Positions 12,050 to 52,057 of a DNA stretch of 64,000 nt are shown here, piece by piece. Each line of letters opens with the position of its first letter. Positions within the stretch are counted from its first letter, which is position 1. The stretch comes from Candidatus Marinacidobacterales bacterium (GTDB taxonomy: Bacteria > Acidobacteriota > Vicinamibacteria > Marinacidobacterales > SMYC01). The translations under genes were made by a program, and so were the position numbers. Under the pieces are notes generated by a model. It did not search any database and was not told where the DNA came from. It saw only the letters and a program-made list of their open reading frames with translations. The stretch spans positions 32,001 to 96,000 of the forward strand of contig CBDCYI010000011.1 in assembly GCA_965224085.1 (NCBI GenBank), written 5' to 3'.

Positions 12050-12573
12050 CCCTCGCCTTCATCGGCCAAAGCGTGTGGATGGACGCGAAGGCTCGGTTGG
12101 CTCAAGTGCTACTGGCACGGGCGTGGCAGGAACGGGTCGCGGGCACGCCCGAGCCGAAGCCCTGGCCTTGGGCCGACACCTGGCCGGTGGCGCTCTTGCG
12201 GGCGCCCCGGCTGGGTGCGAGACAGATAATACTTGCCGGCGCGAGCGGTCGGAACATGGCTTTCGGGCCGACCCATCTCTCGAGCTCCGCACGGCCGGGA
12301 GCCGACACGAACGTCGTCGTGAGCGGACATCGCGATACGCATTTTGCGTTTCTCGAGCATCTCGAGATAGGCGACGAGATCGTTATCGAGACTTCGGGCG
12401 AGCTTGAGCATCGCTACGCCGTAACGGGCGTGGGGGTCGTGGACGAACGCGACACGTGGGTCGCGGAGCCAACAGACGACAAGATGCTCACCCTCGTGAC
12501 CTGCTACCCGTTCGACGCGATCATCCCGGGCGGGCCCGAGCGCTATGTTGTTCGGGCGACCGCCTATCCGTGA
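12010..12573 (+). CDS. Class GN (proteobacterial-type) sortase
   Basis: PWPWADTWP, GHRDTHF (His), TLVTCYPF (Cys), PERY (Arg). Confidence 0.93.
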   Translation: MQRKAVGVLLLAIALAFIGQSVWMDAKARLAQVLLARAWQERVAGTPEPKPWPWADTWPVALLRAPRLGARQIILAGASGRNMAFGPTHLSSSARPGADTNVVVSGHRDTHFAFLEHLEIGDEIVIETSGELEHRYAVTGVGVVDERDTWVAEPTDDKMLTLVTCYPFDAIIPGGPERYVVRATAYP

Positions 12574-12619
12574 GCGGTTAGAAGCAGAACGAGAAGATGG
12601 GACACGGCGGGCTTTCGGA

Positions 12620-12907
12620 CTACGCGCCTTCGACGACGACGAAGTGGCCGGTGGCGGCGCCTTCGCGGGCCGCTTTAGCCTCCCGATATTCGGGCGAGTC
12701 GTAGAACTTCTTCGCCTGCTCGAGCGTGGTGAAGGCGACGATGACGACACGCGCCGTCTCTTCGCTGCCCTCGAGCGTTTCCGTGCGTCCGCCGCGCGCG
12801 AGGTAGCGGCCGTCATATTTGGCGATCGCCACGGCGGCGAGCTTCTTGTAACCCTCGTAAGCTTCCGGGTTCGTCACGTGAACGCGTGCGATGAGATAGG
12901 CGGCCAT
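12620..12907 (-). CDS. DUF1330-family protein
   Basis: Y.GRYLARGG, LEG, FYDSPEY..A...R, VEG signature. Confidence 0.88.
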   Translation of the reverse strand: MAAYLIARVHVTNPEAYEGYKKLAAVAIAKYDGRYLARGGRTETLEGSEETARVVIVAFTTLEQAKKFYDSPEYREAKAAREGAATGHFVVVEGA

Positions 12908-12927
12908 TTCGGGAATCTCCGTCTTGA

Positions 12928-13341
12928 TTACGGATAAGTCGCGATCACGTCGATACTGATCCCGCCGCGTGGCGTGAAGCGTCCCGTGACTGTGGCTCGG
13001 CGCGGCGCGCAAGCCTCGACCATATCGTCGAGGATTAAGTTGACGATGGCTTCGCCGAAGCTTCCGTGGTTCCTAAACGAAAACAAATAGAGCTTCAAAG
13101 ACTTGCTCTCGATGCAGCGCTCGTTCGGCACGTATTCGATCGTGATGTGGCCGAAATCCGGCTGAGAGGTGATGGGGCACACGGAGGTGAACTCGGGGCA
13201 GTCGAAACGTATGACGTAGTCACGCTCCGGGTAGGCATTTTCGAAAGTCTCGAGCTTGGCTTCATCGGGTGAGGTTGGGTAGGCGCGATCGCTGCTTCCG
13301 AGAAGCGTCAAGCCTTCGTAGACTTTCTTTTCGTCGTTCAT
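12928..13341 (-). CDS. queF: NADPH-dependent preQ0 reductase (type I)
   Basis: EFTSVCPITSQPDF, ESKSLKLY, FTPRGGI. Confidence 0.95.
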   Translation of the reverse strand: MNDEKKVYEGLTLLGSSDRAYPTSPDEAKLETFENAYPERDYVIRFDCPEFTSVCPITSQPDFGHITIEYVPNERCIESKSLKLYLFSFRNHGSFGEAIVNLILDDMVEACAPRRATVTGRFTPRGGISIDVIATYP

Positions 13342-13457
13342 CGAGCCCGATCCTACCATGTCACATAACGTTGACAAGGGGGAGGTGCTCCTATATTCTC
13401 ACTCTTCCTTCGCTGGATGGTCCCAGTCCGATTTTCACAATTCATTACGGAGACGGC

Positions 13458-14984
13458 ATGAGCGTCCATTTGATAAACCCAAGCGACACTTCTTTTGGTA
13501 TCGGCATCATCGTTCCTCGCTGGCTCTACGTGATCGCGTCGGCGACACCGGGCGGTTTCGGAACGCCGAATATCGTAGATGAGACGCTCGATCCGATGGA
13601 CTATTCCAAGATCCAGCCAGGCGACATCGTGGGCATCGGTATCCACACGTTGAATGCGCTACGAGGCTACGAGGTCGGGCGAAAAGCGCGCGAGCGTGGT
13701 GCCTATGTTGTGTTCGGCGGCTCGCATGTGACGCTCTACCCGGAAGAAGCGTTCGAGCATGGCGGCGCGACCGCGGTCGTGAAGGGCGACGGTGACAAAA
13801 TCTGGAGTCAGGTGCTCGATGATATCGATAGGGGTGAGCCGGGACGGATCTACGACGGCGGCCGCATAGAAGGGGACTCCTTCCTCCCGGCGCGTTGGGA
13901 TTTGATGCCATCGGAGAGCTACATGATCGCCTCGGTGCAGACGGTGCGCGGTTGTCCGAAACACTGCTCCTTTTGCTCGGTATGGCGCACTGACGGGCAA
14001 AGGCCGCGGCAGCGCGCCTCGGACGTCGTTGTCCAAGAGGTCGTCGAGCTGCGAAGGAAAGGATTTCGTTTCATACTTCTCGCCGACGACAACTTCTACC
14101 CCGTCACGCAGCATGACGTCGAGCTCGAGGAGCGCCGGAACGGCGCGCGTGTGGAAGAGCTGAAAGCTATCCGCGCGGAGCGTTTCGAGCTCTTGAATCG
14201 CCTCGCGGAGCTTCCGCACGACATGGTCTTTTTAACGCAGATTACGATGGAAGCCGCGGACGATGAGGAATATCTCGATGCGATGAAACGTGCGCACGTG
14301 AAAGGGGCGCTCGTCGGTGTCGAGTCGGTGACGGAAGAAGGTCTGAAGGCTGTATTCAAGGATTTCAACGTCGCGGGAGACGCTCTCGTCGACCGGCTCC
14401 GCAAGTTTGTCGACCACGACGTCCACATCCTCGGCTCTTTCATCTTTGGGCTTTCGACGGATCGCGACGACACGTTCGACGCGACCGCCGACCTCGCTGC
14501 CCAGGCAGGGCTCGATTTCGCTCAGTTCTTGACTTTGACCCCGTTTCCAGGAACGGTCGACTTCAAGAAATGGGAGGACGAGATCGATCAGTCCAAAGAG
14601 ACTGTAGACGGGATCCCGCTGAACCGGTTCTGGCTCATTCCGCGGAGCAAACGCCCCAAGCTCTACCTCCCGCATCCAACAATGTCGCCGTACGAGATGC
14701 GGATGAAAACGAAGGCAGTCTGGAACAAGTTCTATAGCCTGCCGAATGTGTGGAAGCGCTCTCGGGTCACCAACAAGCTGCGCGACCGGCTGGCCTATGT
14801 TTTGATTTCGTTACTTTTCCCCCAGATGTACGCGAACACGGGGCTCGCCACCGATAGCGCTCGCGCCCGAGCGCGCCAGTGGGCGAAGTTGATCGCGAAA
14901 CCGTGCCGCCGGGTCTTCACCGCAAAACCGATGCCCGATCTGCAGGTCCCGGCGGTCAAGCCGCCGCGGCCTCAATACGTCTGA
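13458..14984 (+). CDS. B12-binding-domain radical SAM protein
   Basis: N-terminal cobalamin-binding-like region (VFGGSH, GDGD); RGCPKHCSFC; DDNF; GVES; TPFPGT. Confidence 0.9.
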   Translation: MSVHLINPSDTSFGIGIIVPRWLYVIASATPGGFGTPNIVDETLDPMDYSKIQPGDIVGIGIHTLNALRGYEVGRKARERGAYVVFGGSHVTLYPEEAFEHGGATAVVKGDGDKIWSQVLDDIDRGEPGRIYDGGRIEGDSFLPARWDLMPSESYMIASVQTVRGCPKHCSFCSVWRTDGQRPRQRASDVVVQEVVELRRKGFRFILLADDNFYPVTQHDVELEERRNGARVEELKAIRAERFELLNRLAELPHDMVFLTQITMEAADDEEYLDAMKRAHVKGALVGVESVTEEGLKAVFKDFNVAGDALVDRLRKFVDHDVHILGSFIFGLSTDRDDTFDATADLAAQAGLDFAQFLTLTPFPGTVDFKKWEDEIDQSKETVDGIPLNRFWLIPRSKRPKLYLPHPTMSPYEMRMKTKAVWNKFYSLPNVWKRSRVTNKLRDRLAYVLISLLFPQMYANTGLATDSARARARQWAKLIAKPCRRVFTAKPMPDLQVPAVKPPRPQYV

Positions 14985-15081
14985 TTCGATCTCCTAGGCC
15001 GCCGAATTACGACTCGGGGTGTCGGTGGTAGACCTTGTCTGTAATCGTCCAGCCGTCGGCGAGCTTCATCAGCGACAAGTA

Positions 15082-15980
15082 GAGTCCAACGTGACGATCC
15101 TGCCGTCCGGGGTCGCGATGGGCAGCTCACCGAGACGGTGCGTGCGGTGGGTGTCGGCGTCGGGGTCATTAAGGTCCGACATGACCCGGATGTCGATTTC
15201 TCGGCCGTTCAGCTGGTAGTCGCTCGCTTTCGCGCCGTCGATGAGTGCACTGACGGCAAAGCCGCGCTCGCGGTTCGACAGCCCGAGCTCTGCCGCGCGG
15301 CGGCGGTGGGTGACGACCCCGATTTCAGGATTGTCGAGCGTGAGCCCAGGGATCGGACGGCCTTGCGAACCGGGCAGCTCTTGCCGGACTTAGCCGAAAA
15401 TCTCCTGGCCGAGCGTCATCAGCTTGGAAAGCTCGGGCCCTACAATATTGATATCGATGTTCCGGCCCTCGTCGAAGCCGCGCTGAAAGATGCTGCTCTG
15501 GTTGACGATGACGAAGGTCCCTGGAATCTCCGCGCCCACGGCCATGATCGGCGGGATGAGCTCCCGCACCCGAAGCGGGTCGCGCGCGTTGACGCCGATG
15601 AACGCTTCGTTCGGGAGCGCGACGAACCAGAACCCGCGCATGCCGCCGCCCGGTTGCGCCTCTGCTTCGGCGGAGCCGGGCTCGGACCCCCACAGAGGCC
15701 GCAAGGCGTCTTCGTAATAACTTTGAGCCGGGCGGCGGGATCATGACGCCGAACAAGAAATTGTTGTTCCCGACGGGCAGATATTTGGTCTTCGGCATCA
15801 AAAGCCAGCTTCCGCCCACGGCGATGACGGTGAAGATGGCGGATCGTGTTGAGCGCGATGACTTGCTCGCCGGTGCGAAAGACTTTGGCTCCGGGTTTGC
15901 GGTAGCCGAGCTCGGCGCGGCCGACATCGCGCAGATAAATGGGGACGCCGTCGCGAACGGCGATGACGATGTCCTCCACT
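15082..15980 (-). pseudogene. Degraded AcrB/AcrD/AcrF RND permease: several non-contiguous pieces, frameshifts and an internal stop
   Basis: Fragments DIVIAVRDGVPIYLRDV, MPKTKYLP.GN.N, RNIDINIVGPEL, GAKASDY..GREID and LPIATPDGRIVTL lie in different frames with large internal deletions. Confidence 0.75.
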
Positions 15981-39046: not shown

Positions 39047-39187
39047 CTACCTCTTCGATCGCGGCAAGCGCGGCGGCTTCCGTCCCTTCGGCGGAGCGAG
39101 TGCTACGGCGAGAACGAGCCGATCGCGGAGCCGCTTCGGTTTCCGAAACAGCTCCGCGAGGCGGAGCTTCTTACGTTTCGTCGCCAC
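39047..39187 (-). CDS. Small basic protein (46 aa) overlapping the floA stop
   Basis: GTG start with GAGGG RBS; [46 protein letters not shown]. Confidence 0.5.
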
Positions 39188-40157
39188 TCGAGCCCTCGTC
39201 TTCCGAATCAGCCGAGCGCGAGATAGAGTCGCGCATCTTGGTGTCGGAGACGACGTTCTTCATGTTGTAGTAATCCATGACCCCGAGATGACCGTCGCGA
39301 AACGCTTGCGACATCGCGAGCGGCACTTCTGCTTCGGCCTCGACGACTTTGGCGCGCATCTCGTGGACGCGCGCTCTCATTTCTTGTTCCTGAGCGACCG
39401 CCATCGCGCGACGGCCCTCGGCCTTGGCTTGCGCGATCTGTTTGTCGGCTTCGGCCTGCTCGGTCTGGAGCTTGGCGCCGATATTGGCGCCTACGTCGAC
39501 ATCGGCGATGTCGATGGAAAGGATCTCGAACGCGGTTCCGGCGTCGAGACCCTTCGACAACACGGTCTTCGAGATCGTGTCCGGGTTCTCGAGCACGGCT
39601 TTGTGAGACACCGACGAGCCGATGGTCGACACGACGCCTTCTCCGACGCGTGCGACGATGGTCTCTTCGCCAGCGCCGCCGACGAGGCGATCGATGTCGG
39701 CGCGCACGGTGACGCGGCTCAAAGCGACGAGCTGAATGCCGTCTTTCGCGACCGCGGCGACTTTGGGCGTCGTGATGACTTTCGGGTTGACGCTCATCTG
39801 AACGGCTTCGAGCACGTTACGTCCGGCGAGATCGATGGCGGTAGCTTGCGAGAACGTGAGCTTGATGTTGGCTTTGTCCGCGGAAATGAGGGCGTTCACG
39901 ACGCGATCGACATTGCCACCGGCGAGGAAGTGAGCTTCGAGCTGATCCACACTCAAGTCGAGGCCGGCTTTGACAGCGCTGATGCGCGGTTTGACGATCA
40001 TCGATGGAGACACGCGGCGCAGTCGCATCGCGATGAGTGTGCCGATGCCGACATAGGCGCCGGATGAAAAGGCCGCAATCCACAATCCGAGCGGTACGAA
40101 GTACAAGATGAATCCCATGCCGACGAGAATCAGCAGGGCAAGGGCAGTGAATCCCAT
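39171..40157 (-). CDS. floA: Flotillin-like protein FloA (YqfA)
   Basis: [51 protein letters not shown]. Confidence 0.95.
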
Positions 40158-40171
40158 GAACTAACCTCCTT

Positions 40172-40660
40172 TTAAGTAGGCAACGCGTTCTCCGACGCTG
40201 CCGCTTCGACTACGATGCGGGAGCCCCGGACCTCGGTTATGACGACACGCGTATGCGTGTCGATGAACTCGCCTTCGGTGACGACGCTTTGACGGTCTTC
40301 GCCAAATCGGGCTACGCCGGCGGGTCTCAGATCGGACTCAGTGACGCCAACGTCTCCGGGCTCGAGTGTCGTCTCGGCCGCTTTGGCAGTTGCCAGTGTC
40401 GACGAGTGTACGACATCCTTGCCAAAACGGGTTTTTGGAAGCCACCACATCGCGACGGTTACGGAGCTCAGTACGAGCACGATCGTGAACGTCCCCAAAG
40501 CGGCGTCGAACTGCTGATAGGCGAGATAGCAACCCGCCCCGAGACTGATGAGGCCGGCAATTCCCGGGACCCCGAAGCCAGGGATGACGAACGCCTCGAC
40601 GGCCAACAAGAGATAGCCGGTGACGAGAAGTGCGATGACGGTCAGAGTCGGATCGCTCAA
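40172..40660 (-). CDS. Short NfeD-family protein (TM + OB fold)
   Basis: E.F.IPGFGVPGI, SDLRPAG, V.TEGEFI; TTG start overlaps the upstream stop. Confidence 0.88.
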   Translation of the reverse strand: MSDPTLTVIALLVTGYLLLAVEAFVIPGFGVPGIAGLISLGAGCYLAYQQFDAALGTFTIVLVLSSVTVAMWWLPKTRFGKDVVHSSTLATAKAAETTLEPGDVGVTESDLRPAGVARFGEDRQSVVTEGEFIDTHTRVVITEVRGSRIVVEAAASENALPT

Positions 40661-42039
40661 GCATCCTCGCGCACGACAGCATTTCCGGAGCGCCAAGCAA
40701 TGATCGTCACTCGGGCGCCGTTGCTGATGAAATCGCCTTCGGAGACGGCATCGATGCGCGCGCCGTCGATTTGGATCTTGCCCGCAGGGCGCAAGTCCGT
40801 AATGGCTTCGCCTGTGGTGCCGAGCGGAAAGCTTTCCTTCTCGTCTTCATCATGCGAGCTGAACCCGTCCTCGGCTTTGAGCGCTTTGTCTAACACCATG
40901 CGGCGCGCGGTACGCGTCGATGGCAGGAATCGCACGAGGAGAACGCCGGCGACTCCCGTGCCGACGATCGCTGTCGACACCGTGAAGAGTGCTTCATTGA
41001 GAAATCCCAGATCCCAGGACACGCGGAGATCGAGTGCTAAAAGCGACATGACGATGCCGGCGAACATCAAGGCAGCCCCGCTGATGCCGGCAATGCCGAA
41101 GCCGGGGATGACGAGAAGCTCGAGGAGCACGAGGACGCCGCCGAGCACGAAGAGAAGAAGCTCCTCCCAGCCAGCGAGCTGCGCGACGTGGTGGCCGAAG
41201 AAAAACGTGACGAGCGATAATGCGCCAAGAGCGCCGGGAAGCCCGAACCCCGGATGCTGGATCTCGACATAGATCCCGAGCATTCCGAGCATGAGCAAGA
41301 TCGAGGTCACTTGGGGGTCCGAGACGACGCGCGCCAGCGACTCGGCCCACGTGAGCGAGCGATCGAGAACGGTCGCGCCCGACAAGCCCAAAGCTTCGAG
41401 CGCGTCGTCCACCGTACCGGCTTCGTGGTCGGCGATCTCGAGCGCGAGTGCTTCTTCGGTGCTGAGAGTGAGCACTTTGCCTTTTTCGACGACCCCCTCG
41501 ATCTCGATCTCCCGATCCACCATGGCTTCGGCGACGTCGCCGCGACGCCCGCGCGTCTCGGCGGTGGTGCGCATCTCGGTGCGCATGTAGGACATCATCT
41601 TCTCGTCGACCGCGGTCGGCTCTTCCGTTTGGCCTCCGCTATAGATAGGTGTTGCGGCGCCGATGGAGCCTCCGGGAGCGATGACGATTTCTTCGCAAGC
41701 CAAGGAGATGAGAGCGCCAGCCGAGATCGCGCGCGGGTGGATGAACGCAACGGTGCGCACGGGCGATTCGAGAAGCGCGTCGCGGATGAGCACCGCCGCG
41801 TCCACGCGCCCGCCGAAAGTGTCGATGTCGAGGAGCACGACCGCGCCTTCGATCTCCAAGGCTTCGTCGACGACGCGCGAAACGAACGGTGCGAGCCCGT
41901 GATCGATCGTGCCTTCAACGGGGATCCGGAACACTGTCGGAGTTTCATCGCTTGGGACACCGAGGGCACGACCGAGCACAGCGTTGAGCACTAGAAGCAG
42001 CCAAACAGCTTCGAGGTGCGATCGAGGTTTCTTCGTCAC
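40657..42039 (-). CDS. Long NfeD/YqeZ membrane-bound ClpP-class serine protease
   Basis: DIDTFGGRVD, AISAGALI, GAATP, AEAMVD, PGFG repeats, TDLRPAG OB fold. Confidence 0.92.
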   Translation of the reverse strand: MTKKPRSHLEAVWLLLVLNAVLGRALGVPSDETPTVFRIPVEGTIDHGLAPFVSRVVDEALEIEGAVVLLDIDTFGGRVDAAVLIRDALLESPVRTVAFIHPRAISAGALISLACEEIVIAPGGSIGAATPIYSGGQTEEPTAVDEKMMSYMRTEMRTTAETRGRRGDVAEAMVDREIEIEGVVEKGKVLTLSTEEALALEIADHEAGTVDDALEALGLSGATVLDRSLTWAESLARVVSDPQVTSILLMLGMLGIYVEIQHPGFGLPGALGALSLVTFFFGHHVAQLAGWEELLLFVLGGVLVLLELLVIPGFGIAGISGAALMFAGIVMSLLALDLRVSWDLGFLNEALFTVSTAIVGTGVAGVLLVRFLPSTRTARRMVLDKALKAEDGFSSHDEDEKESFPLGTTGEAITDLRPAGKIQIDGARIDAVSEGDFISNGARVTIIAWRSGNAVVREDA

Positions 42040-42344
42040 GTCATCCTTTCGGAGGGCCAAGGGATGTCGTTGTGGTGGCTCTGAAATCCGTTGTCCACAT
42101 TGTATAACAAGCGTCCGAGCCGTGGCGGCATGCGAGCGCATGGCTTGGGATCAGACGTTCTCAAAGAAAACGGGACGCGTCGAGTGATCGCCTAAAGTTA
42201 TAAAAATAAGTACTTTAGTACAGGTTGGCTACAAAGCTGAGTCCGGGTGCCGTTCCGGGTCCCCAAGGTGCCGCTCCGCGTGGCTTGGCGACCGTTCTTG
42301 CCGGTAAAGCTCGCCTGGCTAGTATGGATCCATAAACTGTGCGC

Positions 42345-42806
42345 ATGCTGATCTGGGCGCAGACCAAACAAGGCGCGTGGAGTGCCACGCGCATACCCGG
42401 CGAAAACGGCCTTTCCATCGCCTCGAGCGTGTTCGTCCTGTGCTTAAAAGGCCACCATGCGTGCGGCATCTTCGTTCATGGTGACGCGGATGTCAACGGT
42501 TGTGCGGCGCTCCCGTTTCACGTTCTCGATCATCGAGACGAGATCCGCGTCGACGGTAACCTTTATTACATAAGCGCCGCGTCGGCGCCGGAGCCTTACC
42601 CCTTCGTGCCCGCCGACAAACCGATCCTCTGCGCGCGATGCGGCGACGAGCCCAAGGCGGCGGAACTTGTCGTGCGCTGTCCTCTCTGTGACGCGCTGCA
42701 TCACCACATCGAGTGTTTCGACTACGACCCCGAGTGCGGTGCGTGCAAGCGGGTGACGTCGTGGATGCCGGATTCCCTCGAGGAGAACGAGCGATGGCAT
42801 CACTGA
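42345..42806 (+). CDS. Prokaryotic RING-finger protein with a possible FHA-like N-terminus
   Basis: CxxC-x12-CxxC-xxx-HH(H)-xx-C-x6-CxxC; VNG...L...DEI.V upstream. Confidence 0.7.
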   Translation: MLIWAQTKQGAWSATRIPGENGLSIASSVFVLCLKGHHACGIFVHGDADVNGCAALPFHVLDHRDEIRVDGNLYYISAASAPEPYPFVPADKPILCARCGDEPKAAELVVRCPLCDALHHHIECFDYDPECGACKRVTSWMPDSLEENERWHH

Positions 42807-43042
42807 TGGACGACCGCTACAGCCGTATCGCCGAGATGCCTTTGGTTGGGCCAGATGGGCTGGCCAAGCTCCAACGCTCTTCGGTGGCCATCGTGGGCGT
42901 CGGAAACGTGGGAGGTCAGCTCGGGCCGCATTTTTCGATGATGGGCTGCGGTCTCACGCTCGTGGACCGTGACGTCGTCGCCCGGGTAAACCTCGGAACG
43001 CAAGGCTTCTCTTCGAAGGAAGAAGGGATAGACTTCGTATGA
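42794..43042 (+). pseudogene. ThiF/E1-like adenylyltransferase, 5' fragment only
   Basis: RYSR, G...L..S.VAIVGVGNVG, LVDRD.V...NL..Q; stops after 82 aa. Confidence 0.8.
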
Positions 43043-43045
43043 GCG

Positions 43046-44032
43046 ATGTCGAGTGCGGAAATTCGCCGCTCTGTGAGCCATCTGAGGCAGCTCCTTCGTT
43101 CCGGTGGCTTCGAGAAGGCGGCCGAACAAGCGGAGGAGGCGATGGCGCGATACCCGGATAGCGTCGAGCTCCTTGCCGTGTCCGCGGATATCCACCGGCG
43201 TGAGAAAAAGCTCGATGAGGCGAAAGCGCTTCTCGAGCGAGCGCGCGCCATCGAGCCCATGCACCCGGCCGTCCTCGCTTCTTCCGCAGATCTCGCCTAC
43301 GACCGCGGGCGGTTCGAAGATGCGGCCTCCCTCTACTTGGAGCTCGTTGACCGGCGCCCGAGCAGCTATCACTACTCGCGTCTCGTGGCGGCCAAGAATC
43401 GACTCGGCGCGCACGAAGAGGCGGCTGCGATTGCCCGGCGCGCGCTCGAGCGCTTCCCCGGCGATCCGTGGAACCTCCGCGGCCTCGCCACCGCCGAGAG
43501 CAAGCTCGGACGAAGGGAAGAAGCCGTCGCCGTTTACGAGGCGCTTCTATCCGTAGCGCCCGATGACCGCTTCGCTTACAAAGAGCTCATGCGCCTCAAG
43601 ACCGACGAGAGCTCTCCCGAAGAAGCGGCTTCCGCCCTAAAAGGGCTCATGCGGAGCGGTGGTCGCAGCCGAAATCCCCACCTCAGGACATTGGCCGCCG
43701 AGAGGCTACGCAAAGCGGGGAAGCTCGAAGACGCGGTCTCCGAGTACGAAGACGCTCTCGGCCTCGATCCAGGGAGCCCCTACATCCTGGCCCAGCTCGG
43801 CTTCACCCAAAAAAAACTCGGCCGCGAGCAAGACGCGATCGAAAGTCTCTCTAAAGCGTTCCTGGCAAAGCCTTCCGACCCCTACGTTCGCAAGAGCCTC
43901 GAGTCTCTCTTGAAAAAGCGCGGCGAGATCGCGCGTTTCGTCGAGCTCGTCGACGAAGCGCTGCGGCTTCATCCCTCGGTGAAGCTCCTTCACGGCATTC
44001 GCAAGCGCGTCGCCCGCCTTGCGAGCTCGTAA
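43046..44032 (+). CDS. Tetratricopeptide-repeat protein
   Basis: Several 34-aa helical repeats with A..A...YP, LA......G..EEA..YE.AL..P patterns; no signal peptide. Confidence 0.9.
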   Translation: MSSAEIRRSVSHLRQLLRSGGFEKAAEQAEEAMARYPDSVELLAVSADIHRREKKLDEAKALLERARAIEPMHPAVLASSADLAYDRGRFEDAASLYLELVDRRPSSYHYSRLVAAKNRLGAHEEAAAIARRALERFPGDPWNLRGLATAESKLGRREEAVAVYEALLSVAPDDRFAYKELMRLKTDESSPEEAASALKGLMRSGGRSRNPHLRTLAAERLRKAGKLEDAVSEYEDALGLDPGSPYILAQLGFTQKKLGREQDAIESLSKAFLAKPSDPYVRKSLESLLKKRGEIARFVELVDEALRLHPSVKLLHGIRKRVARLASS

Positions 44033-44047
44033 GGTACACTCCTCGCG

Positions 44048-47000
44048 ATGGCAACAGTCCGCATCGGCGAGCTCGTGGAGCTTCCACGCGTTCGCACTGT
44101 CATCCAGCTCGTGGACGTATCGGACGAGGCACTAGCCCGGGGGATCCTCGACGACTTCGTTCTCACGGCCGATTGCGACTTCGCTCTGAGCGCGCTGCTC
44201 GACGCGATGACGCATGACGAAGGCCAGGGTTTTTTCCTGCAAGGAAATTTCGGCTCGGGCAAGTCCCATCTTCTCGCGCTCGTGGAACTCTTGTTTCGAC
44301 CCGCTGCCGAACCGGACATTAATAAAGAGGACGGGTGGGGAGCGCTCATCCGGCAAAGCCGCCGCTATGAAACGCTACGAAAGAAGCTCTCACCCCATGC
44401 CGGAGCGAGCGTGGTCGGAGCGGTCTCCCTCGTCGCGCACGCCGGCTCGGAAAGACTCGAAGACATCTCTATCGCGGCGCTCGAAAAGACGTTCGAGGGG
44501 CCACTCGGCCTCGCTCCGAGCTTCACCGCGGAGACCGCAGCAGTAGGAGAAATCAGGGCCGCTCTCGAGTCGCGACATCGGGACGCGCTCGAGAGTTTCC
44601 AGAACCGGCGCTCTGTGACCGCCGAGCGTTTGTTCGACGCCGGCCGACCCGATCTGCTCGACGATCTCGTGCGTGAGCTCGACCTTCCGTTCCGCGTCCG
44701 TCGCCAGCGAGGCGCGTTCTTCGATGCCCTCGAGGCGCAGCTCGGAAAAGGCAGCGCGCCGAAACGCGCCCTCCTCATCGTCGACGAGCTCTCGGAGTTT
44801 CTGCGCTCGAAGCCCGATGCCCGCGCGTTCAACGAGGACATCCGCTTTCTCCAGTTCCTCGGTGAAGCGAGCCGACGCATGCCCTTCTTCATCGTCGCTT
44901 CGCTCCAGGAGCACATAGAGACGACGGGCGAGATCGATCAGTCGACGTTCGGCAAGATCAAAGACCGCTTCCCTTCGCGTCTCGCTCTTACCGGAAGCCA
45001 TCTCCGCGAGATTGCAAGCACGCGTCTCATCCTGCAAAAGCCCGGTGCCGAAGCGCAGATCGCAGAGATCTATCGGAAATTCCGCATTGCTTTCAAAGGC
45101 CTCGCCGTATCCGAGGCTGATTTCACCGCACTCTACCCGGTCCACCCGGCGACGGTGGATCTTCTCGACGACTTGTTGCCGCTGTTCAGTCGGCATCGGG
45201 GGGCGGTAGACTTTCTCCACTATCAACTCGCTGGCGATCCTCAGCGACACATCGCCGGGCTATTAGACGCGCCAGCCGAGTCTCTTCTCGGGCCCGATGC
45301 GATCCTCGACCACTTCCGGATTCGCATCCAAGAGACACTCGAGACGAGCCCCTACATCACCGTAGTGCTTGCTTTCTACGAAAAGGAGCTCTCGCGTCTG
45401 TTCGCCGAGCCTGAAGATCGAGAGACGGCGCTCCGTCTCGTCAAGTTGCTCATCCTTCTCGCGATCTCTCCCATCCCCCGGCGCCGCACTGTCGCCGAGC
45501 TCGCCGAGATGCTTCTCAAGAGCATCACCACGCTCGAATCCGAAGCCAACTACGATCACGTTCACGATCTCCTTGAAAAGATGCACCTCGAGGGCGCCTA
45601 TCTATCCCGCACTGAGGGCGAGGACGGCAAAGACCCGTACGAGAATGTGTACTCCCTCGACCTCGCCGCCGACGTCCAGCTCATCATCCAGAGACGGATG
45701 GAAACCCTGCTGAAGGATCCAGGCTTCACCGTCTCTCGAGCCGTGGGGAAACTTCTCCCATATTTCAAGAGTCCCGAACTTCCGCTTGCGTCGCTGGCTA
45801 AGTCGCCGGTCACCGAGCGGCGCGTCTCGTGGCAAAAGACCTACCGCGAAGGAAACCTGCTGTTTTTCCGCGACGCAGACGACCCCCTACTCTCCGATGA
45901 GCGCCTCGATGAGCTGGTGGAGAAGCTCTGGACCACGGAGCTCGACTTCTGTGTCCTACTCATGGCTCCGGGTGGAGGGGTCGAGCCAGCGACGCTAGAC
46001 CGGTTCATCGGACGACTCGACGAGCGAGCGCCCGAGCCCTTCCTTGTCTGGGTGCCGGCGCCGCTCGAAAAAGGCAAGGAGAAGCCCGGCCAGCTCATTC
46101 GCCGGGCGGCGGCTCGGCTCGCCGTCCGGGAGCACTTTCATCAGGAAGGCTCGGACGTAGCGAAGCGTGTGCTAGCGGCCCTCGAACCTCTGATCCGGGA
46201 AGATCTCGAGCTCAGCGAGAGTGTCGTTCAAAAAACCTATCGAGGCGGGCGCTTCATGGCGCCGTCGGGGAGCCCTACGTTGACGCCGGCTGAGCTTCCA
46301 TCCATCGGCTTCGATCGCATCGTGACCCGCCTGGCAGAGTTTCCCCTCGTACGGCGTTTTCCCAACCACTACGACATCGCGCCCTCGCTCGAAGCCTCAG
46401 CGACCGACCTGCCCGCACCGATTCTCCGCGAGTTTTTCCGGGCCGGAGAGGTCGCGCGACAAAACACCTCCGAGATGCTTCGCACGACGCTCGAGTCCAG
46501 GCTGCGCGCGCTCGGACTCGTCCGCCGCACCGCGACCGGTTATCGCTTGCAACCCGACCCCTCGGAGAGCGACCTCGTGCGCCGCGTGCTTACGCGTGTC
46601 GGAGAAAAGCGCGTTGTTTTGGAAGTGCTGTACCAGGAGCTTCGAAAGGGCGCGTTCGGTCTAACGCGGCCGTCCTTCGAGCTCGTCGTGCAGGCATTGT
46701 TGTATTCGGGCCAGCTGACGGCCTACGCTTCGGGCCGAAAGCTTTCTCTCGACGCGCTCGAGACCCGCTCCGTGAGCCGCATCCAGGAGCTGGGCGCAGG
46801 CGAGATGCTCTCAGGCGAGCTGCAAGCCGTGCTGGCTGGACTTCCTTTCGTGCCGCCCCGGCTTCAACAGGGAGCGTTCGGCTTTGCGCAACAACGTGAG
46901 CTCTGGGACTGCGTTGTTCAATGGAAGTCGGAGCTCGAGCGCGGCGTCGCCGATTTGAAGGCGGAGCTCGAGCGGTCGCGTGCCTACCGCTCGGCGGCCC

Positions 47001-49423
47001 ACCTCGATCTCGACGCGCTGAACTCGCGCATCGAGCGGCTCGAATCGCTGGGCAAAGAAGTCAAAGTCTCCTACGCGGCAAGAGAAGGACTCGAGCGCTT
47101 CGCGCGCCGCGCTCGCGAAGAGCCCGACCTCACCCAGGATTTCGAAGCTTTGGTCGAGCTCTCGCGCTTTTTTCGAGAAGACTGGGAGCGCTATCTCTTC
47201 GTTCATCGCTACTTGAGTGATGCCGCGATGGAGCTTCCTGTGCAGGACGAAGAGCACAAAGAGCTCGGCGCGAGACGTCATCGCCTTCGGGAGCTTGCTT
47301 CCCGTCCCGATTTGCCCTTTCTCCCCGCGTTGACGCGACGGCTCAACGATGAAATGCAGGCTTTCGTTTCCACCTACAGCGCTGTGTACGAGAGGGCGCA
47401 CCGCACGCAAAAATCCCGCGAGCGGGTGAAGCGTCTTCTCTCGCTCCGGGACGAGAAGAGCTATCGCGTACTCCAACGGCTCGCTGCGCTCGAGCTGATC
47501 TCGGTCGACGATGATCGGGTGAAGGCGGACCGTCTTTTGGACGAAGCGCTGGCAAAAACTTGCGATAGGCTCTCTCCGGAGCTTCTGCGCGCGAAGCCCG
47601 CATGCGACTGCGGCTTTAGGCTAGGAGACGTGCTCGAGCTTCCCGCACCGTCCGAGGTTCAGACCGTCATCGATCGCGGCATCGTCCAGTACTTGGAAAG
47701 ACTACGGGAGCCGACCTATCTAGAGCCCATCGAGAGCGCACTCCACGGGCTATCGGAAGTGGGCAAAGACTCTCTTGTGTCTAAAATCCGCAAGCTCGTA
47801 GAGCTCGACCTCGAAGCGCCCGATCTTCTGAAGCGCGTCGACAAGCTCGCCGCGAGCGAGGTCATCGACGCGGTGAACGATGCGCTCGCGGGGCACGCAG
47901 TTCTCGTCGAGAGAAGCCTCGAGGATCTCGCCGAGCGCATTGCGGAAAGGAGCTTCCCCCGCAAGGCGCTCCTCGACATCGTGGCACGATGGATCGACGG
48001 TGACGCGGCGCTCGCATCGGAGGACTACATCAAAGTGGTTTCTCAAGGAAAAATCGCGGCAGAGCAAAGTGTGCTTGCGTCTTTCGTCCGCGAACGTTTC
48101 TCGGAGCTGTGGCCGTGGTGGGAGAAGCTTGGTGAGCGCAAAGCTTGCCGGCTCATGGTTCTGGCCTTTCGCGCTCCCGCTCCGGTTGAAGAGGTCGAGC
48201 CACGGATTGCGGAGCGTCTTCATGACGCCTTTGACGCGTTTACCAGCGAGGCTCCCGACGAGGTCTTGTCGGTTTTCGAGCGTGTCGAGAGCGAGCTGAC
48301 GGATGACGAGCGGCGCGCGATTCTCTCACACAATGACGGCGACGACGCGGAGACGCTCGCTCGTCTCGCTTATGGGGAAAAGTCGTTTCGCTTCGCGGTT
48401 AGGGATCGAGCGAGAAAGCTCATCCGCATGGTCCTTGCGGGCTCGCTAACGAGTGTACCGGCCGGCGCGCGTAGTTCGGATCCAGACCAAGACGTTCAGC
48501 GCGAACGGCTCGGCCTCGAGGCACTCACCCGAGCGCTCGAGTCGGGCGTGAGCCTCTACCGCGGGATACACTACGTGGACGGGCTAGAAAAATCCCCCGA
48601 CACCCCAGAGGGCTGGGAGACGCTCTACCGTGAGCACATGGCGCCGATGCCCGTGGCGCTCTGCCATCTGCAGGAATCACTCGACGAGCTCAAGCTCGCG
48701 GATGCGATTGACCTAAAAGGCCCGACCCGAAACGCACGTCGCCTTCTCGAAGCGCGGGCGTCCGACTTCGAGACTTTTTTTCTCGCTCAGGCCCCCGCCG
48801 AGGGTGCGAGAACACTCCGATACCTTTTCGAAGAGTTCGCCGAAAAATACCGAAGAAAGCTCGAGCCCGCCAGCGAGAGGTTTGTGTTCCTCGACGGCAT
48901 GCGCTGGGACGTGTGGAGTCATTTACGAGCCACGCTCCTGCCTCGACTCCGGGCCGTGTACCGCGTCGTCGACGAAATTCCGCTCTGGTCCATCCATCCC
49001 ACGACGACCCAAGCTCAGCTCGAGGCCGCCGGGATCGGCGTTCCCCAGCTCGAGCTCGTCGCGGAGTCCCAACCGAGCTACGGCCAAAAGGCGGAGACTT
49101 CGGTACTGCCCGGTTTCAAGCGTCTCCATGGACCGGGCGGTGAGCCGATCGAGCGACTGAATCTCGTGGACGACAAGATCCACGAGTCGTCGATGCCCCT
49201 CTCCGATGTACTCCGCGAGATCGAGCTTCACGCGCGAAGGACGCTCGGGACTTTGCTGGAAGAAGCGCCGCGGCGAACGCTCGTGTTTCTTTTCTCCGAT
49301 CACGGCTTTCGCGAAGATCCCCGCTGGAGCGAAACCTCCCGGCATCGAAAGCCTCGTTACCGGCACGGCGGCGCGAGCCTGTGGGAGGTCATCACCCCGC
49401 TCGTGATCCTGTCTCGAAGCTGA
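44048..49423 (+). CDS. BrxC/DUF6079-type P-loop ATPase fused to a C-terminal PglZ-type alkaline-phosphatase-superfamily domain (1791 aa)
   Basis: Walker A GNFGSGKSH, Walker B LIVDELSEF, FLQFLGE, KIKDRF, YPVHP; C-terminal LDGMRWD, PTTT, DDKIH, SDHGF, HGGAS..EV..P. Confidence 0.88.
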   Translation: MATVRIGELVELPRVRTVIQLVDVSDEALARGILDDFVLTADCDFALSALLDAMTHDEGQGFFLQGNFGSGKSHLLALVELLFRPAAEPDINKEDGWGALIRQSRRYETLRKKLSPHAGASVVGAVSLVAHAGSERLEDISIAALEKTFEGPLGLAPSFTAETAAVGEIRAALESRHRDALESFQNRRSVTAERLFDAGRPDLLDDLVRELDLPFRVRRQRGAFFDALEAQLGKGSAPKRALLIVDELSEFLRSKPDARAFNEDIRFLQFLGEASRRMPFFIVASLQEHIETTGEIDQSTFGKIKDRFPSRLALTGSHLREIASTRLILQKPGAEAQIAEIYRKFRIAFKGLAVSEADFTALYPVHPATVDLLDDLLPLFSRHRGAVDFLHYQLAGDPQRHIAGLLDAPAESLLGPDAILDHFRIRIQETLETSPYITVVLAFYEKELSRLFAEPEDRETALRLVKLLILLAISPIPRRRTVAELAEMLLKSITTLESEANYDHVHDLLEKMHLEGAYLSRTEGEDGKDPYENVYSLDLAADVQLIIQRRMETLLKDPGFTVSRAVGKLLPYFKSPELPLASLAKSPVTERRVSWQKTYREGNLLFFRDADDPLLSDERLDELVEKLWTTELDFCVLLMAPGGGVEPATLDRFIGRLDERAPEPFLVWVPAPLEKGKEKPGQLIRRAAARLAVREHFHQEGSDVAKRVLAALEPLIREDLELSESVVQKTYRGGRFMAPSGSPTLTPAELPSIGFDRIVTRLAEFPLVRRFPNHYDIAPSLEASATDLPAPILREFFRAGEVARQNTSEMLRTTLESRLRALGLVRRTATGYRLQPDPSESDLVRRVLTRVGEKRVVLEVLYQELRKGAFGLTRPSFELVVQALLYSGQLTAYASGRKLSLDALETRSVSRIQELGAGEMLSGELQAVLAGLPFVPPRLQQGAFGFAQQRELWDCVVQWKSELERGVADLKAELERSRAYRSAAHLDLDALNSRIERLESLGKEVKVSYAAREGLERFARRAREEPDLTQDFEALVELSRFFREDWERYLFVHRYLSDAAMELPVQDEEHKELGARRHRLRELASRPDLPFLPALTRRLNDEMQAFVSTYSAVYERAHRTQKSRERVKRLLSLRDEKSYRVLQRLAALELISVDDDRVKADRLLDEALAKTCDRLSPELLRAKPACDCGFRLGDVLELPAPSEVQTVIDRGIVQYLERLREPTYLEPIESALHGLSEVGKDSLVSKIRKLVELDLEAPDLLKRVDKLAASEVIDAVNDALAGHAVLVERSLEDLAERIAERSFPRKALLDIVARWIDGDAALASEDYIKVVSQGKIAAEQSVLASFVRERFSELWPWWEKLGERKACRLMVLAFRAPAPVEEVEPRIAERLHDAFDAFTSEAPDEVLSVFERVESELTDDERRAILSHNDGDDAETLARLAYGEKSFRFAVRDRARKLIRMVLAGSLTSVPAGARSSDPDQDVQRERLGLEALTRALESGVSLYRGIHYVDGLEKSPDTPEGWETLYREHMAPMPVALCHLQESLDELKLADAIDLKGPTRNARRLLEARASDFETFFLAQAPAEGARTLRYLFEEFAEKYRRKLEPASERFVFLDGMRWDVWSHLRATLLPRLRAVYRVVDEIPLWSIHPTTTQAQLEAAGIGVPQLELVAESQPSYGQKAETSVLPGFKRLHGPGGEPIERLNLVDDKIHESSMPLSDVLREIELHARRTLGTLLEEAPRRTLVFLFSDHGFREDPRWSETSRHRKPRYRHGGASLWEVITPLVILSRS

Positions 49424-49465
49424 TCGCGGGCGCCAACGCATCATCGAAGTCCACCGCTCACGGTC

Positions 49466-49660
49466 CCGGACGAAGATCCAACTCGGCCGGGTCTTGCTCC
49501 CGGCGAAGGAGCGAGTCTCGTCGGCCTGGAGCTCCTCGGCAATAAATCCTGCGATCCTTGCCTGGTTGAAGCGCCGGCACGCGTCGGCGGCCATCTCGAC
49601 CCAGCGGGCCACGGTGTTCCAGGCAATACCTTCGATACGACCGATCGCCGACACGAAGCA
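49466..49660 (-). pseudogene. IS1-family-like transposase fragment
   Basis: SAIGRIEGIAWNTVARW (HTH) and ELQADE.RSFAGSK..WIF (start of DDE domain). Confidence 0.6.
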
Positions 49661-49664
49661 CCAG

Positions 49665-51190
49665 TTACTGTGCATCGAAAACGCCGGGTGGCGCTTGTGT
49701 TTCTCTAGGGGGCGGGTACGCCAAATGTTTTTCCATCTGAAACCAGGGAACCATCCACGGTTCTTCACGCCATGTGCTATCCAACAGGGCAACGTATTGG
49801 TCAACCAATCCGCGAACCCGTGCGTCATGGCTGATCATGTCGTGGACAGGATCGAGTGGACCGACAATTTTCGCATAGACCTGGCCCGCGGAATCTACAT
49901 GATTGAAAACAGCGAATACGGTTGCGCCCGTCGAAAAGGCTAGCTCAGCGAAACTCGTCCGGAACGGTCGCCAGCGACCGTGAAAATCGTATCGGATGCC
50001 GGAGCTTCGGCCATGATGGCCGTCACCGGCGATGGTGACGACACCCCCTCGTTGAAGCGTCCGTCTTGCGGTGTTCAGCTGATGAGAGAAAAGCGAGTTT
50101 TCTAGAGTGCTGCTGGAAAGCTCGAGCCGCTTTAGGTAGATGTGGACGCCACCTACGTTGTAGCTGCCGAGCTGCAAAAGGCTGGACCAAGATTGAGCAT
50201 TGTCGTGACAGCACACCAGGACCACGCCGCGTTCTTGATCGAGGAATCGTTGCAGCTGCTCCTTACCCTCGATCGAGAAGCGATTCGCATACTCCTGCCG
50301 CCGGGCCTCATCCCTTGGCACTCGGCCCCACGGTCCGATCCTATAGTGGAAGAGGCTACCGAACAACAAACAGTCGTGCATCAATCGATTCTCGTCCGCA
50401 TCGATGTCGAGCACACCGAGAAAGCGGCGGATCAGTCGAATGTAGTATCGAAACAACGCGTCTTGCATCGACGGGTATTCGAGGGCAGTGCTCAGGAGTC
50501 GGTACGCCACGGGATAGGGCAGGGCATTCGCCACCGCACTCGCCCACCTCCGACGCCCATGCCACCCCTGTGAGATCGTCGCCTTGGGATCCGCACCAAG
50601 ACGTGGCTGCTCGATACGCTCGTAGAGCGCGTCCAGCGCTTCCGTCTTTTCCGGCTGAACGGCGAAATCAGGATGGACTCGGGTACCCGTACCGTCGGCG
50701 TCGTGCGCATGATCTCCCTTGGACGACCGATCGGGGCTGAGCATGGCGGCCAGTTCCGCCACGCTCGGATTGCGAAAGAACGACTTGAGCGGGATATCCA
50801 CCCCGAACTTTCGTTCCAGTTGCGCGGCGAGGCGTAGGGTCAGCAAGGAATGTCCGCCCAACTCGAAGAAATTATCGTGCACCCCGACTTGCTCCACGTC
50901 CAGTATGTCGGCCCAGATAGCTGCCACTTCTGCCTCGACCTCTGTGCGTGGACCCACGTAGGCGTGCTCGAGATCGGGCCGGGTTGGCTCGGGGGCGGGC
51001 AATTTTCGCCGGTCGACCTTGCCGGTGGGCGTTAGCGCCAGGTGATCCAACTGCACGAAGACGATTGGGATCATATAGTCGGGCAGTTTCTGGCGGAGGA
51101 AACGGCCCAGGTCGCGGCTATCGATCTTGCGGTTCACCACCACGTAGGCCACCAACCGCCTGTCCTGTGGCGTATCTTCTCGAGCGGTAC
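49665..51190 (-). pseudogene. 3' part of an NRPS-like gene: A-subdomain, PCP and LpxL-like acyltransferase domain (5' truncated)
   Basis: RLVAYVV, LPDYMIP, TPTGKVDR; DNFFELGGHSL; GVVLVCCH, L.RGGVV.IAGDG, FHGR.RPF...FAELA..TGA. Confidence 0.8.
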
Positions 51191-51251
51191 TTTCGAGTGA
51201 ACGAACGATTTCGGTCACTCCCCGATGACCTCCGCCCACGCGGGCGGTGCC

Positions 51252-52057
51252 ATTGCTGTCAAATTGAGCTGGTGACTGACAGAATGGTCCAATGAAGACC
51301 GATGCGCCAAGCTACCACGGCTATCGATTTCCACCGGAAATCATCAGCCACGCCGTCTGGCTCTACCACCGATTCTGCGTGAGCTTTCGAAACGTCGAAG
51401 AGCTGCTTGCTCAGCGAGGCATCACGGTTTCCTACGAAGCGATCCGACTTTGGTGCATCAAGTTCGGGCCGGAATACGCTCGGCGACTGAAGCGTCGGCA
51501 GGGTCGCCTTGGTGACACGTGGCACCTGGACGAGGTCTTCATAAAGATACAAGGCGAACGCCAATACCTCTGGCGCGCGGTAGACCAAGATGGTGATGTG
51601 ATTGATATCCTCGTCCAGCCTCGCCGTGATCAGAAAGCCGCCAAACGATTCTTCCGCAAGCTGTTGAAAGGGCAAGGCCGTCCGCCCTGGCAGCTGGTCA
51701 CCGACAAACTGAGAAGCTACAGTGCCGCTCACCGCGAGGTCATGCCGTCCGTCGTCCACGACACTGACCAGTACAGAAACAACCTAGCCGAAGTCTCGCA
51801 CGAACCGACGCGACAACGGGAACGACAGATGCGGAAGTCTAAAGCTCCTGGGCAGGCGCAACGATTCTTGACCGTGCATGGACTCGTGCAAAACCTCTTT
51901 CGCGTCGGACGGCATTTGTTGCAAGCGCATCATCATCGGGAGCTACGAGACCGCGCTTTCATCGTCTGGCAGGAGGTAACCTGTGCCGTCCGATGAGAGC
52001 AAAGGAAGTCAGCTCGACGCAATAGGTTCGCTCGCTCAACGTCAACTTGACAATACC
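51252..52057 (+). mobile_element. IS6-family insertion sequence
   Basis: Imperfect terminal IRs ATTGCTGTCAAATTGA (51252-51267) and TCAACTTGACAATACC (52042-52057) around the transposase. Confidence 0.85.
51292..51996 (+). CDS. IS6-family transposase
   Basis: GYRFPPEII..AVWLY.RF, WHLDEVF, LWRAVDQ, VTDKL.SY, NNLAE.SH. Confidence 0.95.
   Translation: MKTDAPSYHGYRFPPEIISHAVWLYHRFCVSFRNVEELLAQRGITVSYEAIRLWCIKFGPEYARRLKRRQGRLGDTWHLDEVFIKIQGERQYLWRAVDQDGDVIDILVQPRRDQKAAKRFFRKLLKGQGRPPWQLVTDKLRSYSAAHREVMPSVVHDTDQYRNNLAEVSHEPTRQRERQMRKSKAPGQAQRFLTVHGLVQNLFRVGRHLLQAHHHRELRDRAFIVWQEVTCAVR

Follow-up and report, generated by a model that had tools for sequence, protein, structure and literature searches.

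A BREX-derived two-gene variant in Candidatus Marinacidobacterales: a TPR protein beside a single-chain BrxC-PglZ fusion

What happens to a bacteriophage exclusion (BREX) core when its two enzymes, BrxC and PglZ, are made as one polypeptide and no methyltransferase travels with them? This question is raised by a gene pair in a stretch of 64,000 nucleotides from a Candidatus Marinacidobacterales bacterium (GenBank assembly GCA_965224085.1, contig CBDCYI010000011.1, positions 32,001 to 96,000 of the forward strand), called the window hereafter, in which a gene for a tetratricopeptide repeat (TPR) protein precedes one for a BrxC-PglZ fusion of 1791 residues. A first-pass annotation, made from the letters alone, had proposed a new defence system here. 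One part of the answer is clear: the pair is a real, BREX-derived two-gene variant, and no printed description of a TPR protein with a BrxC-PglZ fusion was found, Data S1-S4 of PMC12839542, which may list such architectures, lying outside the search. The other part is a matter of probability: an even chance is given to the pair being a self-contained operon derived from the BREX core that most likely works as a methylation-independent system against invading DNA.

The fused enzyme

The pair consists of two co-oriented open reading frames (ORFs) on the + strand, of 328 and 1791 residues and 15 bp apart; ORF calls and translation place both where the first-pass annotation had put them. The parts and edges are as follows.

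43024..43045, + strand: left edge of the cassette and leader of the TPR gene (homology breakpoints in congeners, contig ends)
43046..44032, + strand: TPR partner gene, 328 residues (Pfam TPR matches, partner profile)
44048..49423, + strand: gene of the BrxC-PglZ single-chain fusion, 1791 residues (ORF; full-length homologues of 1700-1870 residues)
44048..47977, + strand: BrxC-like part, the AAA+ ATPase and the rest of BrxC, residues 1 to ~1310
47978..48439, + strand: family-specific helical linker, residues ~1311-1464 (all-helical in the AlphaFold2 model, poorly conserved)
48440..49420, + strand: PglZ module, residues ~1465-1791, a helical lead-in and a compact catalytic core (1610-1791)
49424..49470, + strand: right edge of the cassette, where homology ends (at 49426 in genome G003, at 49470 in genome G001)

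The chain is thus a BrxC, a helical linker and a homologue of the PglZ C-terminal domain, as the profile, fold and residue alignments indicate. Residues 1 to ~1310 are a complete BrxC/DUF6079 AAA+ ATPase. Such an N-terminus had been proposed from its motifs, and it is borne out by Pfam, PADLOC, NCBIfam (below its cut-off), a canonical BrxC profile and the AlphaFold2 (AF2) fold. The protein matches Pfam DUF6079 (PF19557) at 1.4e-40, with 139 bits against a cut-off of 23, and the PADLOC BrxC model at 8.2e-31. A hidden Markov model (HMM) of canonical BrxC, with 1250 positions, was made from 20 proteins of BREX type-3-like loci, the control loci used below, in which an N6_N4 methylase, an SNF2 helicase and PglZ lie nearby. 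It is collinear with the window protein: its positions 9-93, 173-333 and 907-1219 fall on residues 4-84, 233-395 and 982-1304, respectively. The AF2 model of residues 1-1200 has a predicted local distance difference test score (pLDDT) of 83.8 and a predicted template modelling score (pTM) of 0.47. With this model, Foldseek ranks Acinetobacter BrxC (9zll/9zdx) at the top, at E ~2e-11 and a template modelling score (target) of ~0.6, followed by ORC/Cdc6.

Are the motifs of this protein more than chance resemblances? Invariant columns were counted in an alignment (A1) of 25 full-length homologues that are 27-91% identical; since the columns listed here and below stay invariant over this range, the motifs are beyond chance. 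Every motif named in the first-pass annotation is found in the translation where it had been placed. Those of the BrxC part are:

44243..44266, + strand: Walker A GNFGSGKS, residues 66-73 (G66, G69, G71, K72 and S73 invariant, 25/25)
44777-44788, + strand: Walker B IVDE, residues 244-247 (D246-E247, at 44783..44788, invariant, 25/25)
residues 305-308, + strand: KDRF in the translation (K305, D306 and R307 invariant, 25/25)
residues 363-367, + strand: YPVHP in the translation (Y363, P364 and P367 invariant, 25/25)
fusion protein, + strand: LRKGAFGL..FELVVQALLYSG, present in the translation
47561..47611, + strand: cysteine cluster C1172-x13-C1186-x-C1188, a putative Zn knuckle (all three cysteines invariant, 25/25)

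The cysteine cluster had been singled out as a putative Zn site. It is indeed present and invariant, but it is not peculiar to the fusion: 12 canonical BrxC proteins have C..CPxC in these columns. The cluster is therefore inherited from BrxC, and the idea of a Zn site special to the fusion was rejected.

Residues ~1465-1791 form a divergent PglZ domain of compact build whose metal site is complete, as judged from profile, fold and ligands. The Pfam PglZ model misses this domain; the family profile, the AF2 fold and seven invariant ligands nonetheless confirm what had been proposed for the C-terminus. The profile (A2), which covers the last 462 residues of the fusion in 24 loci, matches the PorX chains 8p6f/8ted/7pv7 at 8.5e-12 to 2.2e-11 and the BREX PglZ chain 9nv3_C at 4.8e-7, with profile positions 136-441 aligned to chain positions 304-650. 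The AF2 model of the C-terminal part (pLDDT 86.6, pTM 0.83) gives the same order in Foldseek, with PorX at 1.3e-8 and Acinetobacter BREX PglZ (9zn5_B) at 1.1e-6; other folds of the alkaline phosphatase superfamily, such as NPP and the sulfatases, lie above E 0.2. The linker, residues ~1311-1464, lies outside the stretch that can be aligned to PglZ or PorX chains. On the C-terminus alone, the sole Pfam match is Phosphodiest (E 0.029), and the NCBIfam PorX model covers residues 1611-1657 only (E 0.0019; 17 bits against a cut-off of 300).

The residues that make up the metal site are:

48893..49387, + strand: metal/nucleophile residues D1616, T1654, D1708, H1712, D1751, H1752, H1773, and E1780 (invariant, 25/25 and 24/24)
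from 48890, + strand: LDGMRWD in the translation (D1616 invariant)
residues 1651-1654, + strand: PTTT in the translation (P1651 and T1654 invariant, 25/25)
residues 1707-1712, + strand: DDKIH in the translation (D1708 and H1712 invariant)
from 49295, + strand: SDHG in the translation (D1751, H1752 and G1753 invariant, 25/25)
from 49364, + strand: HGGASLWE in the translation (H1773, G1774 and E1780 invariant, 25/25)

P1784 is invariant as well (25/25). In PorX, the metal ligands are D239, T272, D361, H365, D415, H416 and H500, and the core residues include P269, G417, G501, G502, E507 and P511 (PMC9757075). The HMM alignment sets D1616, T1654, D1708, H1712, D1751, H1752 and H1773 on the seven PorX ligand positions, and P1651, G1753, G1774, E1780 and P1784 on PorX core positions, E1780 being the equivalent of E507. 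The spacings D-x3-H, H-x6-E and E-x3-P agree too.

PorX-type regulators, in which a REC domain is joined to PglZ for the control of type IX secretion, are thus the best profile and fold match of the C-terminal module: the metal-site residues are identical, and both chains join the PglZ domain to a regulatory one. The differences are equally plain. Where PorX has its REC domain, the fusion has a 1300-residue AAA+ ATPase, with no Response_reg (receiver domain) match to the fusion protein in Pfam and no type IX secretion context. The PorX core is also longer than that of the fusion, whose loops are much shorter; for instance, 21 residues separate the second His of the DH pair from the last His here versus 84 in PorX. 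Among non-fused proteins, those closest to the C-terminal module are ~720 residues long (P0224, P0225, P0229, P0236, P0237 and P0241; E ~1e-39 to 1e-43), and the stand-alone P0224 and P0236 carry a Pfam PglZ domain at ~471-632.

Recurrence of the pair and its TPR partner

Is this architecture confined to one genome? A search of 5.8 billion proteins returned 190 matches, many of them of 1700-1870 residues with 100% query cover; full-cover matches come from Acidobacteria (91% identical), Moorella, Halanaerobiales, Eremiobacterota and Polyangia. In a set of 1.84 billion sequences, the A2 profile has matches at E <= 1e-30 in 169 cluster representatives, and most of its best 150 matches are proteins of 1500-1850 residues, matched at their C-terminal end. 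GTDB species genomes gave 323 stretches with relatives, and 80 loci were kept; the 37 loci examined here comprise GTDB loci, 4 loci from relatives and the window. BrxC and the PglZ module share one ORF in 32 of the 37, among them L021, whose fusion gene (9992-15114) is split into ORFs of 1526 and 252 residues by a frameshift or an assembly error in a metagenome-assembled genome. Two more loci are cut by contig ends, and three are without the PglZ module: L018, which is truncated (1348 residues), L030 and L035. According to record and tree group labels, the 37 loci span at least 11 phyla.

These data bear on an alternative, namely that a canonical BREX locus has decayed here and left this chain behind, or that brxC and pglZ were brought together by faulty assembly. 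In its favour are a transposase and a gene that looks truncated, both downstream of the pair. However, both ORFs are intact, the catalytic residues are invariant in at least 11 phyla, and the cluster representatives matched by the C-terminal profile are mostly long proteins, as seen among the best 150. In addition, both the TPR/fusion and the BrxC/PglZ junctions are spanned, with no indels, by contigs from runs of two further studies, of which X4 (5920 nt) covers 42994-48913 and X3 (5046 nt) covers 43868-48913; because these contigs come from independent runs, the fusion is not an assembly artefact. Nor is it a case found only here, given the loci in at least 11 phyla. Conserved residues, family spread and bridging contigs together refute decay or mis-assembly, which keeps almost no probability. 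The first-pass annotation had warned that partner genes may have been lost locally; the two genes recur as a unit in 33 of the 35 loci with upstream DNA, which answers this concern and is a further reason why the locus is not a decayed BREX.

The first gene of the unit encodes a protein that is TPR throughout (Pfam TPR_19 8.4e-29, TPR_14 5.2e-26), and its 28 orthologues align collinearly from end to end. The count of 33 refers to full-length matches of the TPR partner HMM at most 5 kb upstream of the fusion; 24 of these loci contributed to the HMM and 9 did not. The partner is co-oriented with the fusion in 32 loci and divergent in L026, it is directly adjacent in 24, and in several loci the two genes overlap by 4 nt at start and stop. 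Joint conservation across phyla of the fusion and the upstream TPR gene, a point that the first-pass annotation had set out for checking, is thereby established.

The TPR gene is an obligate partner of the PglZ-bearing form: the only TPR-less loci among the 35, L030 and L035, are the same two that are also without the PglZ module. A complex prediction with the TPR alignment A4 and the C-terminal 462 residues (A2) scored 0.00, which speaks neither for nor against contact. The BrxC-like proteins of L030 (366-5032) and L035 (9296-14020), of 1335 and 1346 residues, are nested in the fusion tree, and each gene is preceded by a co-oriented ORF of 220-223 residues with no Pfam family. L048, L051, L053 and L055 represent a related subfamily, and in all four a weaker homologue of the TPR protein is encoded on the other strand. 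The ATPases of L051, L053 and L055, like that of L052, have 1430-1495 residues and match only positions ~354-470, the last third, of the PglZ profile.

Neighbouring genes and comparison with known systems

Does anything else travel with the pair? In a greedy gene set of flanking ORFs, taken up to 10 kb per side, TPR is the only neighbour cluster found in more than 5 loci (26 loci), and the next-largest clusters, histidine kinases and ABC proteins, reach 5 loci each. An HMM of the type-3 BREX methylase PglXI, positive in 18/20 canonical control loci, has 0 matches among ORFs of at least 70 residues within up to 10 kb in the 37 loci, a negative that applies to PglXI, as no dedicated models for PglX type 1 or BrxP were used. 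A second scan took 137 neighbouring ORFs of at least 150 residues, from -4 to +3 kb, in 35 loci. None of the DNA-methylase families of Pfam is matched by two or more of them, and no Pfam family at all by more than 3. The other 14 of the 151 neighbours (13 annotated separately, 1 matched by the BrxHII HMM) include no methylase.

As for the remaining BREX genes, no BrxA, BrxB or BrxL neighbour recurs in the flank clustering, these three having no search models of their own, and BrxF-like, WYL and unnamed clusters from the control loci have 0 matches in the 37 loci. Both brxC and pglZ, by which a BREX locus is recognized, are present, fused in cis. That no methyltransferase or other BREX gene recurs beside the pair is supported by flank clustering, the PglXI HMM and the neighbour scan.

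Helicases deserve a separate word. Genes for them lie beside or inside the operon in 6 of the 37 loci:

L015 6924-9575, L026 2466-4991 and L041 6103-8562: SNF2 helicase (BrxHII HMM, 4e-26 to 1.5e-49)
L021 8817-9995 and L025 15356-17731: RecQ-type helicase
L050 14838-18032: UvrD with a PD-(D/E)XK nuclease

These loci may represent three-gene variants of the system, and they also count in favour of a link to DNA. Might the pair, then, be just the conserved core of a larger BREX-like system, whose methylase, other modification enzyme or BrxH-like helicase is unlinked or varies between lineages? The six helicases, three of which are SNF2 proteins matched by the BrxHII HMM, would fit this explanation, and so would genome G003, where a separate BrxC-like ORF of canonical length, 1237 residues, exists besides the fusion at another place in the chromosome (locus L009, G003:C1:8106765-8107253). 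Yet 31 of the 37 loci have no adjoining helicase, PglXI is unmatched, and no methylase family recurs among the 137 neighbours. Moreover, the genome of the window has neither a second BrxC-like match nor a match to Pfam PglZ, and the cassette that varies between congeners consists of just these two genes. A larger system is accordingly held to be improbable.

How does the pair compare with what has been described? Its core enzymes are those of BREX/Pgl (types 1-6), BrxC (PglY) and PglZ: collinearity extends along the full BrxC length, Cys motif included, all metal ligands of the PglZ core are common to both, and some fusion loci carry an SNF2 helicase like BrxHII. On the other hand, two proteins there are one polypeptide here, and the pair comes with a dedicated TPR protein, without a PglXI match and without a recurring BrxA, BrxB or BrxL neighbour. 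BrxA-like and BrxB-like (iSTAND) partners are called universal in BREX (PMC12839542). The PglZ of E. fergusonii also has a BrxB-binding N-terminal domain, a central domain and a C-terminal beta-barrel (PMC12205998), which the PglZ part of the fusion does without.

BrxC-like ATPases, in some cases with PglZ and in others not, also form non-canonical combinations in the BREX-related (BR, types 1-3) and BREX-related capture (BRC) systems (Rakesh and Krishnan, NAR 2026, PMC12839542). BRC resembles the fusion in pairing DUF6079 with a reduced PglZ, but it has seven components; the BR systems, unlike the fusion, use DUF499 ATPases with a methylase and a helicase. The main text of that paper contains neither TPR nor tetratricopeptide, and the phrases 'C-terminal PglZ', 'BrxC-PglZ', 'two-gene' and those for a PglZ fusion are likewise absent from it.

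Turning to immune proteins of another kind, a Foldseek search with residues 1-1200 gave a sole, weak Avs match, at rank 17 with a probability of 0.63. In STAND/Avs proteins, an NTPase acts together with a TPR array and a nuclease-type effector. The likeness to the pair lies only in how it might work: the ATPase of the fusion is of the ORC/Cdc6-BrxC kind, and its TPR protein is a separate small protein that is not fast-evolving.

The cassette and its possible role

Among congeners, the pair behaves as a 6.4-kb cassette. Window positions 40036-43023 are 90% identical to congener G002, which is without the pair, and this homology stops at 43023; G001 shares 43028-49470 and G003 shares 43024-49426, both with other DNA on either side. 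The pair is therefore a sharp 6.4-kb indel with respect to G002, located in a variable, transposase-bearing region next to nfeD/floA. Full-length copies occur in 3 of the 5 genomes searched in the genus, in 5/41 relatives and in 3/401 genomes sampled across the phylum, its own genome being included each time, and in G012 the pair sits ~0.9 Mb away from the nfeD orthologue. No terminal direct or inverted repeats were found around the cassette, and no transposon-like structure is claimed; a promoter and terminator scan of 42100-49800 gave counts not above those of shuffled sequence. In runs X3, X4 and X9, from two studies, contigs depart from the window at 43023, beyond which all three runs share one unrelated sequence; these breakpoints suggest a co-occurring strain variant without the cassette.

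What, then, could the pair do? The nuclease activity of PglZ was not demonstrated until 2025: the enzyme nicks and cuts double-stranded DNA and cleaves cyclic oligonucleotides, T538 and H741 being required and ATP inhibitory (PMC12205998). Contacts within BrxC:BrxB:PglZ were reported in 2026, and BrxC uses its N-terminal AAA+ domain to bind the complex of BrxB and PglZ (PMC13326643). By analogy, the BrxC part of the fusion would bind DNA and oligomerize in an ATP-dependent manner, as canonical BrxC does, and would position or gate the PglZ domain in cis. The PglZ domain would then nick or cut DNA, or cleave oligonucleotides. The covalent link may stand in for BrxB, the scaffold through which BrxC is connected to PglZ in type I BREX, while the TPR protein, whose gene is often translationally coupled to that of the fusion, would serve the PglZ-bearing form as an obligate adaptor or regulator. 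The target would be the DNA of phages or of other mobile elements. Put together, we infer that an ATP-driven BrxC scaffold, bound to DNA, controls the metal-dependent phosphodiesterase or nuclease fused to it in cis, with the TPR protein as adaptor or regulator.

A defence role of the pair, taken in general, stands at about the midpoint of probability on this analysis. More tentative, and short of that midpoint, is the full proposal of a two-gene immune system in which a BREX motor is fused to a nuclease, the TPR protein licenses or restrains it, and foreign DNA is attacked without an epigenetic self-mark. Because no methyltransferase travels with the pair, the choice between self and non-self would not be made by BREX-type methylation.

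Several observations weigh against a BREX-derived immune system, and they begin with the protein itself. Its NCBIfam BREX_BrxC (NF033441) score is 90.1 bits (1.2e-25), well under the curated cut-off of 400 bits, so that the window protein is a divergent BrxC relative and not an equivalog. Pfam PglZ (PF08665) does not reach E 0.1 on it; among homologues, this model matches 1 of 25 at E <= 0.01, and a precomputed match exists for 11 of 120 listed. The context offers no more help. Housekeeping genes (MFS, ABC, aldolase, MreB, aconitase, TIM) make up most of the 137 neighbours, among which PADLOC makes generic kinase- and ABC-type matches only. No full-length copy is present in 72,556 plasmids, where 6 records have N-terminal BrxC-type matches only, or in IMG/VR, where 37 loci show no match past residue 619. 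The defence function put forward in the first-pass annotation thus draws no support from its surroundings.

Rates of change point the same way. The fusion is 91/92/80% identical in G001/G003/G012, against 87/87/72% for NfeD, and is at least as conserved. The TPR protein is 90/77/62% identical to that of the window in G001/G012/G017, where the fusion has 91/79-81/60-65%. It changes no more quickly than the enzyme, which argues against a fast-adapting sensor, and the suggestion that the TPR protein senses a trigger is left unsupported. The tree mostly follows phyla, with 10 label changes versus a minimum of 9. Together with the lack of full-length copies in plasmids and viral contigs and with an NfeD-like conservation of both proteins, this tree speaks against a mobile defence island. 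It was built with FastTree, the truncated or split L018, L021, L026 and L036 being excluded; no claim on transfer is made beyond its broad agreement with phyla, because branch support is only local and long branches come together.

Could the pair rather serve the cell itself? It might be a nucleic-acid or oligonucleotide machine of minority lineages, for DNA maintenance or repair, or for turnover of linear or cyclic oligonucleotides as in PorX, with the TPR protein as a subunit for assembly or regulation. The housekeeping neighbourhoods with no enrichment in defence genes, the lack of full-length plasmid or viral copies, a tree largely congruent with phyla and a conservation equal to or above that of NfeD all suit such a role. 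So do the C-terminal profile, nearer to the signalling phosphodiesterase PorX (~1e-11) than to BREX PglZ (5e-7), and the repair-type helicases (RecQ, UvrD) that adjoin the pair in some loci. What this explanation accommodates poorly is the very sparse occurrence noted above for the phylum and the genus, the clean cassette indel between congeners at a variable, transposase-bearing spot and the different locus in G012. Furthermore, the two enzymatic parts are otherwise found together only in BREX-type conflict systems (PMC12839542). On balance, a cellular role is possible but rather unlikely.

Either outcome would be rewarding. How BREX stops phage is still unsettled, and a natural chain made of BrxC and a minimal PglZ is a simple object for the biochemistry and cryo-electron microscopy of their coupling. 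The fusion would test whether the BrxC-PglZ core acts without methylation, and the pair would add a TPR-dependent mode of control. If the two-gene immune system is real, it would be a minimal natural form of BREX and a single-chain model of BrxC control over PglZ; if the pair is non-defensive, BREX core enzymes would be seen at work in ordinary cell biology.

The surroundings of the cassette complete the picture. On its left, on the - strand of the window (39171-42141), floA, which is flotillin-like, and nfeD are conserved in all 5 relatives searched, and this gene pair marks the stable edge of the variable region. The first-pass annotation had described both flanks as damaged. That does not hold for the left one, 90% identical to G002, but it does for the right one: within 49665-51996, a - strand ORF with an AMP-binding_C fragment, a PP-binding domain and a lipid-A-type acyltransferase domain resembles a truncated gene of the nonribosomal peptide synthetase type, and an IS6-type (DDE_Tnp_IS240) transposase comes after it at 51292-51996. 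At the syntenic site of G002 (L095, 14796-17129), a ThiF-family (E1-like) gene is accompanied by two co-oriented ORFs of 177 and 244 residues with no Pfam family, and a DDE transposase is found further along (11716-12936); the ThiF-family gene and its two ORFs may form a further accessory module of this hotspot.

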